Of a DNA stretch of 18,618 nt, positions 575-14,870 are shown piece by piece (the stretch's first letter is position 1; each line of letters opens with the position of its first letter). The notes under the pieces were generated by a model. That model made no database searches, had not been told where the DNA came from, and was given only the letters and a program-made list of their open reading frames with translations. The DNA is from a virus (Duplodnaviria; Heunggongvirae; Uroviricota; Caudoviricetes). The position numbers and the translations under genes were made by a program. The stretch lies in the IMG/VR virus record IMGVR_UViG_2778261163_000001. One strand, given 5' to 3'.

Positions 575-912
575 CAGATCACCACTTCGTCAAACTGACA
601 CGAAAAATCGGTATAGGTGATATGTTCTGTCGCTGACCACGTTCGACACACCACTCTGATTTTTCTGTTAATACCCGGCGGGCGCCAAAAAAAAGATTTA
701 TAGCCTTCATGCCGGGCTAAAAATTCTTCAAATGAATCACGTTCATTCGCCTCAACTTTGAAATCACAGGTGAAAACGCGCAGAGAATGATTAAGTCCAT
801 TTGGACTTCGTTGCTCATAACCATCACCAAATCTTACAGTTTTTATCGATGGTTTATTTTCTGTTTTCATTCCATCCTCTGGTAACCAGTGAAATTCTTC
901 CGTATTAGCCAC
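574..912 (-). CDS. M: minor tail protein, lambda gpM-like
   Basis: 112-aa ORF with GTG start at 912 preceded by GGGGGA; overlaps the tape measure stop. Contains VRFGDGY and ends ...QFDEVVI, resembling lambda gpM (ends ...EQVVN) at similar length. Position between tape measure and L matches lambda order H-M-L. Confidence 0.75.
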
Positions 913-3900
913 TTAACATTCCCCCATCACGTCGCATATTTAACAGATTGCCCTGCACCCGCTGATCAACCATCCCCATAAGTGCTTTTATTGCCTGAGG
1001 GCCAATCTCTCCATTCTGGCCGTCATTTTGAATAGTGATTTGGTATACAGGGGCATAGGTAATATCTCCGCCTCCATTACCACTTTTACTATTAATAGCT
1101 CTGACACCAAGAGAACCATCGGAAGTTCGTGTTAATGGCATAATGGCTTCCGGTCCAGCCTCACCAAAAACACCAGCCCCTTTTGCAAAAGCAAAAAATT
1201 GCGGGGAATCATAAATACCGTTCGAATACGTGCTCAATGACGGAGACTCATAAACACCGCCCTTTGCATTCGGAATAAATTTACTAATAGCACTCCCGAT
1301 AGTTCCTAAAATCCCCCCAGAAGAACTGTTACTAATGCTGTCGAAAATCCCAGTAATTGAAGCCTTTAATGCTATTCGACTAAGATCCGAAATCACGGAA
1401 GTAGCGAAAGAACGAAAATTTGCCTTGCCTGTCGTGACAAAATCACCCAGCGCATCGGTCATTCCATCAAACATCTGAGTCGTGGTTGATTTTATCTGCT
1501 CACTGATATCCTTAGTGTCATCCAGCCAGTTATTGAATCCCTGGGAGGCACCACTAACCCAGTCTCCTGCCTGAATATCGAGCTGCTCGTTTTTCTGTCT
1601 GACAATTTCTTTTTCCCGTTCCAGAGCATCATTCAGAGCCTGCATTTTCTCTTGAAAAACATGATCTGACATTCCACGGGATTTATCTGCATAGTCACGT
1701 TCAAGTTGCAGACGCTGATTGTTATATCCATGTTCAATCCGCAGTAATTCCTGCTGGCGTTGCTGATTTTTATCGCCAACCCCATAACCAGCAATCTGAA
1801 TATCATACCCCTGCTGACGATTATCAATCGAAGCCTGCAATGAATCACGCCATGCTGTTATTTCGGCGGATTCCTTGATTAGCCTGTTATTTTTTTCAAT
1901 CGCAACATTTTTCTCCATCAACGTGGTTATTTCTTCCCGGTGTAAGAGAAGCGATTTCTGATCCTGGGTTAATTTCGATGATGGTCGTGACTCTAGGTCG
2001 GCAATCCGCTGACGCCACTTAACCAGTTCCTGTTCAGAGGAACTTAATTTAACGGTCAACTCAGCTTGTGAACTTAGTAACGCATTCTGTTGATTCAGAT
2101 GATCAATCATTCGTTGGGCTGCATCATCAGAATAACCTTTCGCCTTTGGTTGCTTTGGATCTTTATAACGCTCATTTATTTGAGCGATAAGATTATTATA
2201 TTCTTCCTTTGAATACTGATTCTTTAGCTTTTCCAGTTTTGCAAGTTCACTAGCTCTCTGCTGCTCCCGGGTCTGATATTGTTTTGAAAAGGCATCTGCT
2301 CTCTGTCTGAGTTCAATTCCTTCCTGTTGTCGCTTGTTGTAATCGTTTATTGATGAATTTAGTACGTCCTGAGCAATTTTTTCTGCTTGAAGTACGCCCA
2401 ATTGCTGCTTTAATCGTGCCAGCCTTTTATTTTGAGCTCCGCCATCTCCAATGCCACCTAACCCGAAAACTCCGGGTCGGGTATTTTTTTCTATTTCATC
2501 AATTTGACGGAGAACATCTGAGATTTTTTGATCAAGGGAGGCCTCACGGCCAATATCCAGCATGGAATCCCATGCCCATTTTGCGGAGTCTGCGACAGCT
2601 TTCCATGCAGTCTCAAGATAACCAAGATTTTCTTTAATCTGGTTGGTGCGCTGGATCATTGAGGATGAGTATTCTTCTGTCGCAATGCGGGCGGCCTCCT
2701 GCTGGTTCCCTTCATCCTGTAGCGCCTTAATCTGGTTATAAGTCGCAAGTGTCAGAAAATGGTACTGATCATTAAGTTTTGATATGGCACTGACAGGATC
2801 CTTTGCAATTTCATTGAAGTCATTAACCAGTTGTTCGGTTGATATTCCTGTTACTTCGCTCGTTTTTACTATCGCTGTCGTCACTTGCTCCAGCGAACTG
2901 CTCGCTACCTTTCCCGAACGCACAAGCTGATTTAATACTGCCGCCGCAGCACCAGTTGTCGAATCAGCCGCATTCCCGGCACGTTGAGCTATATCGCCCA
3001 ATTGCCCGCTGGTTGTCCCCAACTGATTTCCGGTAAGAATAAGAGATTTATTAAATTCGTCCTGCTCCTGAGAGCCTTTATAGTAAGCCAGTCCTAAGAC
3101 CCCAACGGCTGCTGCGGCCAGGGTAAAAGGATTAATTAATCCCAGCACATAAGAACCTACACCTTTGATCGCCGGGCCAATCCCACCGAACATATCTTTT
3201 AGCTGGCCGCCCTGCTGCATTAACACCATAAATGGCGACTGACCAGTGGACAACCCAACAACAATATCCGTCATTTGTGCAGGCAACATGCGCATAGCAA
3301 AAGCCGTTTGTTTTGCCGACATTCCGGTTTTGCTTAATTGTGATTGAGTAACCTCAAGCTCACTCCGCATAGCACGAAGTTTTCCAGAAAGCTCCTCATA
3401 CATTTCAGGAGAAAGCATCCCCTTAGCTTTTGCTTCATTGAGCTGTTTCTGTTGTTCTACCAGACGATTAAAAGCAGTTCCGACAGGATCAAGTTGAGCA
3501 ATCAGACGTTGCAAAGCAACAACCTGTTCATCATGCGCTTTTGCTGCTTCTCGCTCTGCCTGAGCCTCTCCGGTAAGCTCTCGCCGTGTTTCCTGTATTT
3601 TTCGGCTATAATTCTCAAACTGAGAACCATTTATTTTCCCGGATGCAAACGCAGCATTAAGTTCATCATGCTGTTGTTCAAGATTTCTTAGCGCCGCAGC
3701 CAGAGGGTCGATCTTGTCCAGCATTCTTTGAAAGGCCTGAGCCTGCGCTTCCTGCTGGGCGGCAGCAAGTTTTCCGGCCTTCTCGGCTTCTCTCTGCGCT
3801 TGCGCAACCCCGCTCAATTCCTCTGTGGTTTCATTAAGTTTACGGACAAGAAATTCATATTCTTCTTTATCAATAAGCCCTTTATCGAAAAATTTCTTTA

Positions 3901-4138
3901 ATTCAGAATAGCGTCGACCGACAGTATCAATTGCGGCACCAACTGGATCAATAGCTGCTTTTAATTTTGCGAGCGCGTTCTTCTCATCTTCTGTTGCCTT
4001 AGTCACTTTCCCTGCGCTATTTGCAGCAGTTTCCCCAGCCTGCGTCATTTTGACTAATGAGGAGGTCAGATTGTCAGCATTATTTTTCGCTCCAGTGCTA
4101 TCAATAATTATTGCGAGACGCGAGGTTTGCTCTGCCAT
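905..4138 (-). CDS. tail tape measure protein
   Basis: 1077-aa ORF, ATG at 4138 with AGGAG upstream. Highly alpha-helical, Ala/Gln/Glu-rich N-terminal half with three degenerate ~60-70 aa repeats ([15 protein letters not shown]... / [15 protein letters not shown]... / [15 protein letters not shown]...); Gly-rich C-terminus. Sits immediately downstream of the frameshifted chaperone pair, as in siphovirus tail modules. Confidence 0.9.
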
Positions 4139-4151
4139 TTATTAAAACTCC

Positions 4152-4182
4152 TGACAACAAAAAACCCACCGCGAAGTGGGTT
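4152..4182 (-). terminator. putative intrinsic terminator in the chaperone/tape-measure intergenic gap
   Basis: On the minus strand: AACCCAC-TTCGCG-GTGGGTT hairpin followed by TTTTTTGTTGT. The plus-strand reading has no U-tract, so it is oriented for minus-strand transcription. Confidence 0.45.
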
Positions 4183-4303
4183 TCAGGCGACATAATAGTA
4201 GATATAGCGATTACGAGGCCACGCAATGCTTTTCTCCAGGAGCATCATCGATTTAATTAAAGACACCATCACATCTCTGTAACAGAGTGTACGTAATTAA
4301 CAA

Positions 4304-5073
4304 CTACACACACTGCTCCTGAAAATACTGGTCATCCAGTGCAAAGATCACTGCTTCAAATTCATCGCGCTCAATCAATACCGGATGAGTGGCTAAATAT
4401 TCATTTATCTCTGTCAGAGATAAAGGCAAAGGCACCCCAGCCATTCCAGCATAACGTCGGGCACGGGATATTACCGAATAGGCGTACAACAACTCCTTAA
4501 GCACCGGGTCTATTTCTGGTTCCGGTATCGGTGGCAACCTGAGTTTTTCTCGCTTCCATCTTGCCTTTTCCCCCCTTTCTCCCCCGAACTCCGATAACCA
4601 CCGCTGGGCAGCTATGGCTTTTTTATCGTATCCTGCTTCTGCTGCTCTTTACCCTGGGCGATGCTGGCTGCTTCTGCAAGGATCTGCCAGTACAACTCTG
4701 GATTCTGCTTAAGCAGCGCGATCCCTCGTTCTGCCGTATATTCCAGTGCAACCTCAACACCATTAACCAGTTCACCAACCCCTTTCCAGTCTTTCAGCAG
4801 ATAACGAGCGGCATTATCAATGAGTAAATCATCAACAGAATCCACCTCGGAAACCTTTGAAATATCAAACTCCTTCGTTCCGACGTGCAAACTGGCATCC
4901 ATTTTCTCAATGTGGCGACGGATTAATGCATTACGGGAGCGATACTGATCGTTATCGCTGCTTGCCACCAACAGTTTTAACCCGTCTACAGGTTTTAAGT
5001 CCTTCATTGGCGTAAACCAGCGTTCTCCACCAATGATAATTTTCTGATTAAGAATAAACATCCATAACCTCAT
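4304..5073 (-). CDS. tail assembly chaperone frameshift product (gpGT-like), made by a -1 shift at 4618..4624
   Basis: After a -1 slip at A AAA AAG the reading frame stays open with no stop (..AIAAQRWLSEFGGERGEKARWKREKLRL..) and runs in frame into the track ORF 4304..4537 (PPIPEPEIDPVLKELL...). I checked this codon by codon. The 4304..4537 ORF has only a TTG 'start', consistent with expression solely as a fusion. Predicted product about 256 aa. Confidence 0.7.
4612..5073 (-). CDS. tail assembly chaperone (lambda gpG-like, short form)
   Basis: 153-aa ORF directly upstream of the tape measure gene, ending ...DTIKKP-TAG with the slippery heptamer A_AAA_AAG two codons before the stop. Confidence 0.75.
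   Translation of the reverse strand: MRLWMFILNQKIIIGGERWFTPMKDLKPVDGLKLLVASSDNDQYRSRNALIRRHIEKMDASLHVGTKEFDISKVSEVDSVDDLLIDNAARYLLKDWKGVGELVNGVEVALEYTAERGIALLKQNPELYWQILAEAASIAQGKEQQKQDTIKKP
4618..4624 (-). other. programmed -1 ribosomal frameshift slippery heptamer A_AAA_AAG
   Basis: Plus-strand CTTTTTT at 4618..4624 is AAAAAAG on the minus strand, in the 0-frame register A AAA AAG, followed by a G-rich stretch (GGGGGAGAAAGGGGGG). Confidence 0.7.
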
Positions 5074-5121: not shown

Positions 5122-6084
5122 TCAACTAATCGCCTCAGCACTGGCTTTTGCGATCACGGCAGCCGGGGAATTTTTTTTTCTGGTTATCGTAGGTGCTTCA
5201 TCTGCTGCGGTAATGCTCAATTGAACCTGGATAATGTCGCTATTACCCCCATCAGGCCATTCACCTGACACCTGAACCTTCGGGAAACTGAAAGTGTATG
5301 CCCCCTCTCCATTCGAAAGCGTGAAGCTGAACGGAACTGTTTCTCCAGTCAGTGTTTTACTCCAGATTTCCCACGCGGCTTTAGACCATGAAAGCGTCAC
5401 CGTACCGGACGGTGTAAAAGTAGTCGGAATATTTGCTCCTGCATAAGGCGAGCCAGTCCCGATACAACGCTGTGTCTGGAGTTTGTTATCGAACTGAATA
5501 TCAAAACTGTCGATACAAAAACCGTTACCTCCGGCAACACCATTCAGGCTTACTGCTGAAACCTCCTTAAACGAATAACGTAGCTTTCCTGCACTATCCA
5601 CAGGTTCGCCTTTGATAAAATTCGTATCATCGGCCTTTGATTCCCAGTCCAGTCCGGCAAAGGTTACGGTCGCTGTAATATCGCCGTCGTTAGGGATCTG
5701 CATTTTCCATGAGCCAACCTGCGCTCCTCTGACGACAGAGGCAATTCCGACATCGGACGCATAGGTCGCCAGAGAAAATGTTATTCGCTCATTCCCCATT
5801 GTCAGAGAATCGCCTGACCATTCCGCGCCGAAACAGGATGCAAGAAAATCATCATGTTGACCCCAGCGAAATTTGGTACCAACATCACCGCCGACATCCA
5901 CAGTGCCAGGCGTCGCCCCCTGAGCCATCCGGGAGCCACCAATCTCATTATTTTCGCCTTTATTCTGGGTGGGTTTTACTCCCCAGCTTGTGCGTTTTAA
6001 TAAACTCCAGTCACCACTTGCTGGCGTAGTGCCTGCAACCGTCTCCCGGATAAATGCCGAGATAACCTTTGCACCTGAACTCAC
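5122..6084 (-). CDS. major tail (tube) protein
   Basis: 320-aa ORF with GTG start at 6084 preceded by AGGAGG at 5-nt spacing. Gly/Thr/Ser-rich, beta-rich-looking sequence. Assigned by position between the head-tail joining genes and the chaperone/tape-measure genes; no specific family recognised. Confidence 0.65.
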   Translation of the reverse strand: MSSGAKVISAFIRETVAGTTPASGDWSLLKRTSWGVKPTQNKGENNEIGGSRMAQGATPGTVDVGGDVGTKFRWGQHDDFLASCFGAEWSGDSLTMGNERITFSLATYASDVGIASVVRGAQVGSWKMQIPNDGDITATVTFAGLDWESKADDTNFIKGEPVDSAGKLRYSFKEVSAVSLNGVAGGNGFCIDSFDIQFDNKLQTQRCIGTGSPYAGANIPTTFTPSGTVTLSWSKAAWEIWSKTLTGETVPFSFTLSNGEGAYTFSFPKVQVSGEWPDGGNSDIIQVQLSITAADEAPTITRKKNSPAAVIAKASAEAIS

Positions 6085-12493: not shown

Positions 12494-13795
12494 TTAAATC
12501 CGAAGTGATGTGACTCTTCCGGTCGGTTTGACAATAGGGAATTGCTTAACGATGAAATAACCTCCGGCATCATTCGGGTGATCATTGCCAGATTTTTTAT
12601 CAGGCTCCCCCTTCTCATCCCAGACCTGTTGCTCCAGAGATTCGGCATATAACGGGCAACGCTTCACATTAACTTTATAGCGACGCTCACCATTGGCATT
12701 GCAGAACATTGCATTCATTGAGTTAACGCGATCTTTTACTGGCGGGTTCGAGCTGTTCACCACAACGTTAAAACCAGCCTGCTTAAGCTGGGCTATATCC
12801 GTCGTACTTGCGTTACTTGATTTTCTGGAATCCCCGGAAGCATCTGGATAAATATAAATTTCCCTCACTTTCCGGTAATCATTCCCATCATACAGCCAGA
12901 AGCGTTCTTTAATGATGCGGATCATATCCGGCGTATCGTAGGCATTGATGATTTCAGTTACCGCACATGGAAGCCCCAAACGCAGCACATGGACGATTCC
13001 CGCCATCTTTCCAACGTTAAAATCCATCCCAATATAAATCGGCTCCCCTGGCTGCTCCACTTCTTCGCAATTATTCAGTTTCCGGTCAAACTGATGGTAA
13101 ACAGTACCACTTGTCAGGTTAGTAAACTGTCCTCGAAGATAGGCTTTAATCAGCTCTGGAGGGTATGATTCAAGAAGCGAAGGAATGTAATCTGCTGGCA
13201 GGTTCTTTTCATTATCGAAAGTAGATGCCTGCACTAGACCATACAGTGAGGCCAGCTCTGTTTTTTCACGCACGGCTTTAACAAACTGCTCGTAGACAAA
13301 TTTGAATCCTTCCGGCGTGGTTGTAACGTCAATACCGTTGCGAAGTCCATCAATCTTATAACGCATACGTGCAATTATCTTGCGCCACGCCGTTCTGGCT
13401 TTTTCCTTCGGCAAAATGTCCAGTTCATCCACCAACGCATTACCAATTTTGAAACCGACGATCGTTTGTGGCTTCTCCATCGATCTGCAGATAGTGGTTC
13501 CCCGATACTGGCGTCCGTAATAAAAGTGAACCTCTTTATTTCCCTCATTAATTTTTACGTTCAATCCCCAGTCAGCAGCAACTTCTTCCACTGTAGGGTA
13601 AAAAATATCGCGAATTTGGGGATACGTTGGCGCAAAATATCCCTGATTTATACCTGGATGCTCCCAAATCCCCTTGCATATGCCGCCACACCCAACCCAT
13701 GTTTTGCCCGAGCCAAAACCAGCAATATAGGCTTTAAATTTATGGGGCATTGAAAGAAATCGCGCCTGAGGCACATTAAGCGTCGGAGAGATCAT
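12494..13795 (-). CDS. terL: terminase large subunit
   Basis: Walker A (YIAGFGSGKTW), Walker B-like (NALVDELD), and C-terminal nuclease-type acidic motifs (IGMDFN, YPDASGD, HPNDAGGYF). Likely start is ATG at 13795 (MISPTL..., 433 aa), 8 nt after AAGGAG; the track's 13804 start is GTG. Confidence 0.9.
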   Translation of the reverse strand: MISPTLNVPQARFLSMPHKFKAYIAGFGSGKTWVGCGGICKGIWEHPGINQGYFAPTYPQIRDIFYPTVEEVAADWGLNVKINEGNKEVHFYYGRQYRGTTICRSMEKPQTIVGFKIGNALVDELDILPKEKARTAWRKIIARMRYKIDGLRNGIDVTTTPEGFKFVYEQFVKAVREKTELASLYGLVQASTFDNEKNLPADYIPSLLESYPPELIKAYLRGQFTNLTSGTVYHQFDRKLNNCEEVEQPGEPIYIGMDFNVGKMAGIVHVLRLGLPCAVTEIINAYDTPDMIRIIKERFWLYDGNDYRKVREIYIYPDASGDSRKSSNASTTDIAQLKQAGFNVVVNSSNPPVKDRVNSMNAMFCNANGERRYKVNVKRCPLYAESLEQQVWDEKGEPDKKSGNDHPNDAGGYFIVKQFPIVKPTGRVTSLRI

Positions 13796-14870
13796 CTTCA
13801 TCACTCCTTACTCTGGCATCAACCACATTAATATTGATCGCCACAGGCTGGGGATGTTCATTATCCTCCACCGTTTCGATCTCTTTGCGCAGCTTCTGGT
13901 TTTCTATTCTGCGCCGTTCAATTTCCAGTTCCTGTAGCCGCTTATCTGCACATAATGCCCCGCCAGCAGAAAGCAAACGCAACAATTCACGCCGGGCGGC
14001 AGCCTTATCCTCCAGCAGGATCTCAACACCGTATTTTCCGAGCTTTGACCCTGCATATAATTGCCGCGCATCCCCATCAAGCAGTGTGGTATCAGCCATA
14101 TAAAGCTGTCCCGTTCCCTCACCGCAGCACTTCGGGCAATCCGGATTGGGTATGGCGTTATCAACAAAGCCGAGGCCTCCATATTCCGGCTCGGGTTTAC
14201 CATCTCTGGAGGCCTGTGCCGCAGCCTTATCGAATTCTGCAATATCACGCCACTGGTAGAGATGATTCTCGCCCCAGCAATAACGGCAGTTAACACGGCG
14301 AAATTGTGCCAACTGATTGGGGTCGGCCTGGACAATGGCCATCAACTGGCTCACCAGTAAATCCAGGTCTGCGGTATAGCGTTTCTGGTACTGATTGCGG
14401 AAGTAGCTGATAGCACGATAAACCCTGGCATTTCTAAGCATACGACTGGCGTTGCTGTTAGCTGTCGCACCTTGCCCCTCATAACCGGCTAGTCGGTACG
14501 CCTCTGTCGGCTTTTTACCCTGAGCAACAAGCATCGCAAACTTAGCCTGCTGGTCAGAAATGCCGAATTCATCGGGACAGAACGAAAATTCCTCCGCGTC
14601 GCCTTCATTCAGGCCCGCATCGAATACTGGCTTTTTTTCCTGAGATTTTTCGTTCCGCTTTTGTGCAGTCTGCGCAGATTTTTTCTGCGCACTTTTTTGC
14701 GCAGTTTTGCGCATTTCTGTCTGCGCATTTTTCGGAGTTTTTTTGATGTAACGACGGGCTGTTGCGTAATTCAGTCCCCTTGCTTCACACCATGCCACCG
14801 GAGATATACCGGAGCGGGTGTATTCAGCAATATACTCCTGCTGCAACGCCCCCCAGTCCGGTCTGCTCAT
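13776..14870 (-). CDS. terS: terminase small subunit (long form, with Cys4 cluster)
   Basis: Immediately upstream of terL and overlapping it. Central segment ...SDQQAKFAMLVAQGKKPTEAYRLAGYEGQGATANSNASRMLRNARVYRAISYF... fits the small-terminase HTH pattern. Also has an N-terminal HTH-like region, a Lys/Gln/Ala-rich linker, and a CxxC...CxxC cluster (CRYCWGENH...CPKCCGEG). Confidence 0.75.
   Translation of the reverse strand: MSRPDWGALQQEYIAEYTRSGISPVAWCEARGLNYATARRYIKKTPKNAQTEMRKTAQKSAQKKSAQTAQKRNEKSQEKKPVFDAGLNEGDAEEFSFCPDEFGISDQQAKFAMLVAQGKKPTEAYRLAGYEGQGATANSNASRMLRNARVYRAISYFRNQYQKRYTADLDLLVSQLMAIVQADPNQLAQFRRVNCRYCWGENHLYQWRDIAEFDKAAAQASRDGKPEPEYGGLGFVDNAIPNPDCPKCCGEGTGQLYMADTTLLDGDARQLYAGSKLGKYGVEILLEDKAAARRELLRLLSAGGALCADKRLQELEIERRRIENQKLRKEIETVEDNEHPQPVAININVVDARVRSDEDDLSDA
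14662..14727. repeat. phased array of palindromic TGCGCA hexamers separated by T-tracts, inside terS; candidate pac / terminase-binding site
   Basis: Five exact TGCGCA copies at 14671, 14686, 14698, 14708 and 14722, plus a TGTGCA variant at 14662, spaced 9-15 bp apart with T-runs between them. They coincide with the AQK-repeat linker of TerS. The repeat itself is read directly; the function is inference. Confidence 0.4.

Follow-up and report, generated by a model that had tools for sequence, protein, structure and literature searches.

Support for a G/GT-type programmed -1 frameshift at A_AAA_AAG in the YdaY tail assembly chaperone of a Rac-type siphovirus prophage

The G/GT frameshift of tail assembly chaperones is a textbook mechanism, and the practical value of a further case lies in the correction of annotation. 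In E. coli dnaX, A_AAA_AAG works by the same re-pairing of tRNA-Lys that is proposed here, with a Shine-Dalgarno (SD)-like element 10 nt upstream, a stable hairpin approximately 6 nt downstream, a shift of about 50% and a shorter product. Phage lambda is described as needing approximately 30 G per GT (PMC5009743). Among prophages, the published cluster A_AAA_AAG_25, that of the ECs1801/ECs1802 pair of Sakai Sp9 (HK97-like), is marked as a true frameshift case (PMC4066793), and 6-7% frameshifting was obtained in experiments with an HK97-like chaperone cluster (PMC3711429), whose only tie to the ECs1801 cluster is the GeneTack cluster number given in the PMC4066793 supplement. A_AAA_AAG and G_GGA_AAG both belong to the motifs most prone to shifting in E. 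coli, the former shifting at 0.29% alone, 4.3% when the IS911 elements are present and 39% when the IS3 pseudoknot is, and the latter, similar to A_AAA_AAG, at 0.28% alone and 43% with a pseudoknot (PMC4066793). In the Acinetobacter phage vB_AbaS_TRS1 (NC_031098, TRS1_18/19), the join is already annotated as a two-piece CDS (programmed frameshift). A full-text literature search retrieved no paper on a frameshift of ydaY or of Rac-type prophages; the survey of Xu, Hendrix and Duda 2004 was outside the reach of that search and may list the case.

The stretch of DNA analysed here (the window, 18,618 nt, IMG/VR record IMGVR_UViG_2778261163_000001) has all of its long ORFs on the minus strand. Its structural module is of the standard siphovirus type, with a complete head-tail set on one strand, and is arranged in the order small and large terminase, portal, head morphogenesis, scaffold, major head, adaptor, head closure, tail completion, tail terminator, tail tube, two small ORFs, tape measure and minor tail protein. 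The two small ORFs, referred to as G and T, are flanked by the tail tube gene, directly upstream of G (5122-6084, minus strand; Pfam Phage_tube_2, E 9e-32), and by the tape measure gene, downstream of T (905-4138, minus strand; Pfam TMP_2, TMP_4 and Tape_meas_lam_C), and thus occupy the position that defines a G/GT pair. A 165-nt spacer (4139-4303) separates the T stop from the tape measure ATG and holds a terminator-like hairpin followed by a T run (4161-4184, minus strand; 10-bp stem, 4-nt loop, T-rich tail), which lies outside the frameshift signal. One to four additional small genes are found at the position of this spacer in relatives, and in TRS1 a terminator is annotated right before the gene next in line after T. 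As regards the tail tube gene, alternative frames near 5171-5179 yield only 11-12 codons, and one E. coli RefSeq copy of the gene is labelled 'frameshifted' (964 vs 963 nt).

The chaperone region is 100% identical to that of Salmonella phage SPF_0923 and has 98% identity with a group of E. coli phages. Since SPF_0923 is an isolated phage, the split between G and T is compatible with virion production. Of 5426 complete E. coli genomes, 1074 (about 20%) contain the module, which is also present in isolated phages. G corresponds to the Rac prophage gene ydaY. What is left of this prophage region in K-12 comprises the 3' two thirds of ydaY with the heptamer, the T frame, and ynaA, a truncated tape measure gene; the predicted 252-aa GT product would assign a function to this orphan K-12 gene.

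The longest ORF of G starts at ATG 5073 and codes for 153 aa, the length adopted for the chaperone in the first-pass annotation of the window. The ORF itself was retained and its length was revised: ATG 5061, with GAGG six nt upstream, is the likely start of G, as it fits the N-termini of the homologues and the GenBank annotation, unlike ATG 5073, and it gives a G-type tail assembly chaperone of the YdaY family of 149 aa (4612-5061, minus strand, 0 frame). The 3' end of G reads, in the 0 frame, ..CAG GAT ACG ATA AAA AAG CCA TAG. It contains the slippery heptamer A_AAA_AAG (4624-4618, minus strand), which is in the X_XXY_YYZ phase relative to ATG 5061 and likewise to ATG 5073, and whose AAG codon specifies Lys148; the 0-frame stop TAG (4614-4612, minus strand) follows after a single sense codon (CCA) past the heptamer. 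The -1 frame opens past TAA 4651-4649 (from 4648) and its translation is free of stops down to TAG 4306-4304, so that the stop codon sought as a refutation of a continuous frame was not there. The G and T frames overlap by 34 nt, with T in the -1 frame, and the T part of the fusion comprises 104 codons (4304-4618, minus strand), from GCC 4618-4616 to TAG 4306-4304. Across the junction the -1 frame translates as ..KK AIAAQRWLSEFGGERGEKARWKREKLRL PPIPEPE.. (= ..KK AIAAQRWLSEFGGERGEKARWKREKLRLPPIPEPE..), and the predicted GT fusion is 252 aa long, with ..DTIKK joined to AIAAQRW... The first part of the -1 frame (the linker, 4538-4617, minus strand; AIAAQRWLSEFGGERGEKARWKREKLR..) contains no ATG, GTG or TTG and is beyond the reach of canonical starts, the first such codon being TTG 4537, 27 codons past the junction. 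The downstream ORF had been described as lacking an ATG of its own; up to TTG 4537, the -1 frame is free of GTG and TTG as well. The apparent gap between the two ORFs also exists, with a length of 74 nt (4538-4611) rather than 75 nt.

The heptamer alone is not rare, AAAAAAG occurring in 8 copies on both strands of the window vs 6.4 expected. Its context is what sets the site apart: the 19 genes of the window hold 23 in-phase slippery heptamers, and a long -1 extension is present only at 4624-4618 (104 codons vs at most 33 at the other 22). A second in-phase A_AAA_AAG (14631-14637, minus strand) lies within the small terminase gene (13776-14870; 364 aa), at its codon 79, where a -1 shift would terminate after 8 codons.

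In the public records examined, the chaperone is split into 'YdaY' and 'hypothetical protein' with arbitrary starts. GenBank gives G plus a separate hypothetical protein of 61 or 66 aa, RefSeq a 119-aa 'protein YdaY' from TTG 4971 plus a 77-aa hypothetical protein, and no annotated G-T join was found among the GenBank and RefSeq records of the Rac-type phage family examined. The 119-aa RefSeq form is assigned even in intact prophages, and looks like a propagation to them of the truncated K-12 form.

Conservation of the site was analysed in 91 loci of close relatives, drawn from species-representative genomes and IMG/VR. These represent 43 distinct nucleotide versions of the region around the site, which occur in E. 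coli, Shigella, Citrobacter, Klebsiella, Dryocola, Entomohabitans and IMG/VR contigs. The locus search was performed with a 3-sequence fusion alignment, a 7-sequence one being too divergent. A_AAA_AAG was in phase and at the same codon in all 43 versions, followed by a -1 extension of 100-117 aa, with the 0-frame stop 1, 7, 25 or 35 codons downstream. The remaining close loci carry the heptamer too, with the sole exception of a Raoultella locus (L023), where GTG GGA AAG CCT TAG places the lambda-type heptamer, G_GGA_AAG, in exactly this position. In Klebsiella phages (65% identity) the sequence is still A_AAA_AAG CCA TAG. Among more distant relatives, the motif is C_GCA_AAG TAA in Erwinia phage Gungnir39, G_GAA_AAG CCA in Pseudomonas phiPSA1-like phages (32% identity), where G extends 20 further codons, and G_GGA_AAG in Acinetobacter phages. 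Eight metagenomic relatives (25-50% identity), retrieved by a full HMMER scan and then each placed on its own contig, have G_GGA_AAG (5), A_AAA_AAG (1) or G_GAA_AAG (2). In every distant case the motif falls on the conserved Lys codon of a C-terminal [DE]-T-[VI]-x-K, and each of these relatives (Erwinia, Pseudomonas, Acinetobacter and metagenomic; 25-50% identity) has a homologous -1 extension of 104-130 aa. Lys148 does not vary among the 7 fusions aligned, and its conservation is at least 90% in the alignment of 25 G sequences. The YdaY family is a well sampled one, in which A_AAA_AAG, G_GGA_AAG, G_GAA_AAG and C_GCA_AAG plus stop interchange on one Lys codon. The position of the 0-frame stop is not conserved, being found 0, 1, 7, 19, 23, 25 or 35 codons past the Lys codon when all relatives are considered.

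This distribution bears on two other explanations of the split. According to the first, it would be due to a frameshift mutation in a decaying prophage, the pair being the pseudogene of a once-single chaperone gene. Rac-type prophages are often defective, K-12 ydaY is truncated, and one E. coli protein of 240 aa (P0001) has G and T in a single frame, all of which would suit such an origin. However, the two-frame layout is shared by all relatives examined, which belong to several genera and include isolated phages, and the 0-frame tail past the Lys codon is short, variable and low-complexity. The in-frame protein, moreover, forms a single cluster of 5 sequences and appears to derive from a deletion of about 35 nt upstream of the heptamer (..ILAEA joined to GYDKKAIAAQRW..). 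A pseudogene is, on these grounds, extremely improbable. According to the second, the fusion would result from slippage of RNA polymerase on the A run and not from a ribosomal event. Transcriptional slippage is known for long A/T runs, and an additional A in the mRNA would lead to the same protein. The run is just six A long, however, and the G_GGA_AAG, G_GAA_AAG and C_GCA_AAG of the relatives lack a sufficient homopolymer while keeping the A_AAG tRNA-Lys core; because of these two features transcriptional slippage has an exceedingly small probability.

Some loci depart from the common layout. IMG/VR contigs with unusually good E-values were screened for in-frame fusions, and only one deviates (L026, IMG/VR 2513237361_000013, 2438-2760): it has indels in the G/A homopolymer runs 3' of the heptamer, so that its -1 frame ends at 39 codons and the T core is read in the 0 frame. 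An assembly error, or decay of this copy, is the probable cause. Four relatives of the window segment 4612-4990 (P0014, P0015, P0019 and P0040) have unrelated N-termini joined to YdaY; the first three share a common break point right before GLKLLVASSDNDQY, and the ParB-like fusion P0040 joins further in. These chimeric proteins suggest that Rac-like prophages have an endpoint at which deletion or recombination recurs.

The calls of a 61-77 aa 'hypothetical protein' in GenBank and RefSeq imply that T is a separate gene with its own start (TTG 4537 or GTG at about 4492), the heptamer being incidental, and a start at TTG 4537 would retain the conserved T core. The linker was compared in 18 distinct versions over the 25 codons past the junction, a segment out of reach of any start codon. 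Variable columns at positions 1, 2 and 3 of the -1-frame codons were 12/25, 9/24 and 21/24, respectively, and the ratio of synonymous to non-synonymous codon differences was 1291:797 for the -1 frame, as compared with 289:1988 for the 0 frame and 170:1876 for the +1 frame. Third-position variation and the excess of synonymous differences are thus confined to the -1 frame, indicating that the -1 segment codes for protein beginning at the slip site. None of the 43 versions has an ATG, GTG or TTG in the -1 frame between the upstream stop and at least 27 codons past the junction; the first candidate T start ranges from +27 to +58 codons, and in 2 of the 43 the first possible one is an internal Met at +58, beyond the T midpoint. 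With this coding signature and a first start that shifts among versions, independent initiation of T is not a conserved option. Besides the drift of the start and the conservation, as -1-frame protein, of the 27 codons upstream of the TTG, a separate T is opposed by the disagreement of annotators on its start, by the poor context of TTG 4537, which is preceded by AGG alone, directly abutting, and by the fact that the slippery site is either kept or swapped for another slippery site family-wide. We consider an independently initiated T very improbable.

A -1 frameshift at the heptamer remains as the preferred reading. The variety of the motifs prompts for a further, more tentative one, to which we give somewhat less than even weight: the YdaY family may need only the slip at the A-site A_AAG (Lys), with slippage of a single tRNA being enough to produce GT. 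Members with G_GAA_AAG (phiPSA1-like phages and two metagenomic loci) and with C_GCA_AAG directly before the stop (Gungnir39) cannot re-pair the P-site tRNA, and yet have the same start-less T frame. Within the same reading, and with the same reservation, an adjacent stop codon may help single-tRNA slippage in some YdaY members. If this were true, frameshift finders based on heptamers would miss part of the YdaY family.

Homology searches placed G among tail assembly chaperones. G matched PHROG 313 (tail assembly chaperone) with 158 bits (E 4.9e-46), and the 252-aa conceptual fusion with 174 bits (E 8.2e-51), covering profile positions 20-246 of 258. The score against PHROG 8233, a second chaperone family, rose from 16.8 bits for G alone to 34.1 bits for the fusion. 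The T part alone corresponds to PHROG 1189 (125 bits); its match to Pfam PF23812 Phage_TAC_18 (20.5-20.7 bits) is below the gathering cut-off of 27 bits, and among nine relatives this family was hit with 13.5-21.1 bits in four and not at all in the other five. No Pfam match was obtained for G with the Pfam copy scanned, which was an older one without the PF27119 model; however, a precomputed match to PF27119 Phage_YdaY exists in homologues 95-99% identical to G and in all the distant ones looked up. No NCBIfam model matched G or T, and an Rfam scan of the whole window returned no family. The AlphaFold model of G, built on a 25-sequence alignment, had a pLDDT of 84.7. Its best BFVD neighbours were mostly annotated tail or tape-measure chaperones, several of them of fusion length, while a Foldseek search of the model against PDB gave no significant match. 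A PDB sequence-profile search returned a lone histone match (E 0.12), judged spurious. Model-based evidence for the membership of G in the tail assembly chaperone fold is supportive but modest.

A G-rich stretch just 3' of the site had been put forward as a possible stimulatory element, together with the possibility of a pseudoknot or hairpin downstream of the heptamer. The former was rejected, either as stimulator or as G-quadruplex: the run starts about 33 nt past the heptamer, which is too far, and it is driven by the codons for EFGGERGEK, its nucleotides not being conserved. For the latter, folding of the 88 nt 3' of the heptamer gave -19.2 kcal/mol with z = +0.95, no better than shuffled sequences, and the consensus fold of the 18 versions gave -2.7 kcal/mol without any compensatory pair. 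A local hairpin (CCAUAGCUGCC-CAGC-GGUGGUUAU.GG; 4591-4617, minus strand), with a zero-nt spacer to the heptamer, is predicted in the window and in the close E. coli group, more diverged versions folding otherwise; it is not conserved in the Klebsiella, Citrobacter and Raoultella versions and shows no covariation. This hairpin is a possible weak stimulator. Upstream, an SD-like AGGA tetramer (4631-4634, minus strand) lies 6 nt 5' of the heptamer and is a candidate only; CAGGA is kept in the enterobacterial versions but also encodes a conserved Gln-Asp/Glu, and AGGA is missing in the Pseudomonas phages. A dnaX-type signal, in which the SD would lie about 10 nt before the heptamer and a stable hairpin 5-8 nt after it, was not found at the site, where the corresponding distances are 6 and 0 nt. 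No strong stimulator is thus evident, but at most a weak adjacent hairpin and a nearby AGGA. As neither a conserved 3' structure nor a correctly spaced upstream SD was found, the efficiency could be only 0.3%, that of the bare motif; from the published values, the shift at the YdaY site probably occurs at a few tenths of a percent to a few percent.

Taken together, the joining of G and of the start-less downstream ORF by a G/GT-type programmed -1 frameshift at A_AAA_AAG is supported by the gene order, by the frame anatomy, by a slip site kept at the same Lys codon down to 25% identity, by the coding signature of the linker, by the family matches to tail assembly chaperones and, modestly, by the fold matches. 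We regard it as highly probable that a Rac-type siphovirus prophage here encodes its G/GT tail assembly chaperone pair by means of a -1 slip on A_AAA_AAG. The core of the first-pass annotation, namely that the heptamer at the end of the 153-aa ORF joins the downstream ORF by a -1 shift, is borne out by the in-phase heptamer at 4624-4618 and its conservation in relatives; the claim that this is the conserved tail-chaperone arrangement agrees with the gene order, the conserved slip site, the linker signature and the PHROG 313 match.

In the mechanism we propose, most ribosomes translating the YdaY-type G gene would stop at TAG 4614-4612 and release the 149-aa G, while those slipping back by one nt at A_AAA_AAG (4624-4618) would continue in the -1 frame to 4304 and produce the 252-aa GT fusion. 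By analogy with lambda G/GT, the slip would take place with Lys-tRNAs in both the P and A sites, re-pairing from AAA/AAG to AAA/AAA. On the same analogy, many G and few GT molecules may coat the tape measure protein, the T domain may recruit the tube protein, and both G and GT would be absent from the finished virion.

Compared with known systems, the locus has the same heptamer as E. coli dnaX, A_AAA_AAG, and differs from it in its AGGA at 6 nt, in having only a weak zero-spacer hairpin and in a shifted product that is longer instead of shorter. In the ECs1801/ECs1802 pair of Sakai Sp9, G likewise finishes with A_AAA_AAG (A AAA AAG TAG) and is followed by a short -1 ORF and then the tape measure gene; this G is 124 aa long vs 149 aa in the window. 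The possibility that the YdaY family is itself the published prophage cluster A_AAA_AAG_25 was considered and rejected, as no BLASTP similarity to ECs1801 was found, the two being alike in design. TRS1, on the contrary, is a homologue, with a T about 39% identical and the site at the same aligned Lys codon; it differs in using G_GGA_AAG, in a G running 26 codons in the 0 frame past the site, and in the additional genes between T and the tape measure gene. As in lambda G/GT, the pair has the major tail gene on one side and the tape measure gene on the other, the -1 shift is placed close to the G 3' end and leads into a T frame without a start, and the fusion is expected at a low level; the lambda heptamer, G_GGA_AAG, is also used by some members of the YdaY family. 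The locus differs from lambda in the heptamer of the window, A_AAA_AAG, and in that T is followed by a 165-nt spacer, with its terminator-like hairpin, before the tape measure gene begins. The lambda G family was absent from the Pfam, PHROG and NCBIfam scans, G belonging to PHROG 313 and, to judge from its homologues, probably to PF27119 Phage_YdaY. The pair of the window would work like lambda G/GT and has every testable feature that defines the class, with modest support from the fold.
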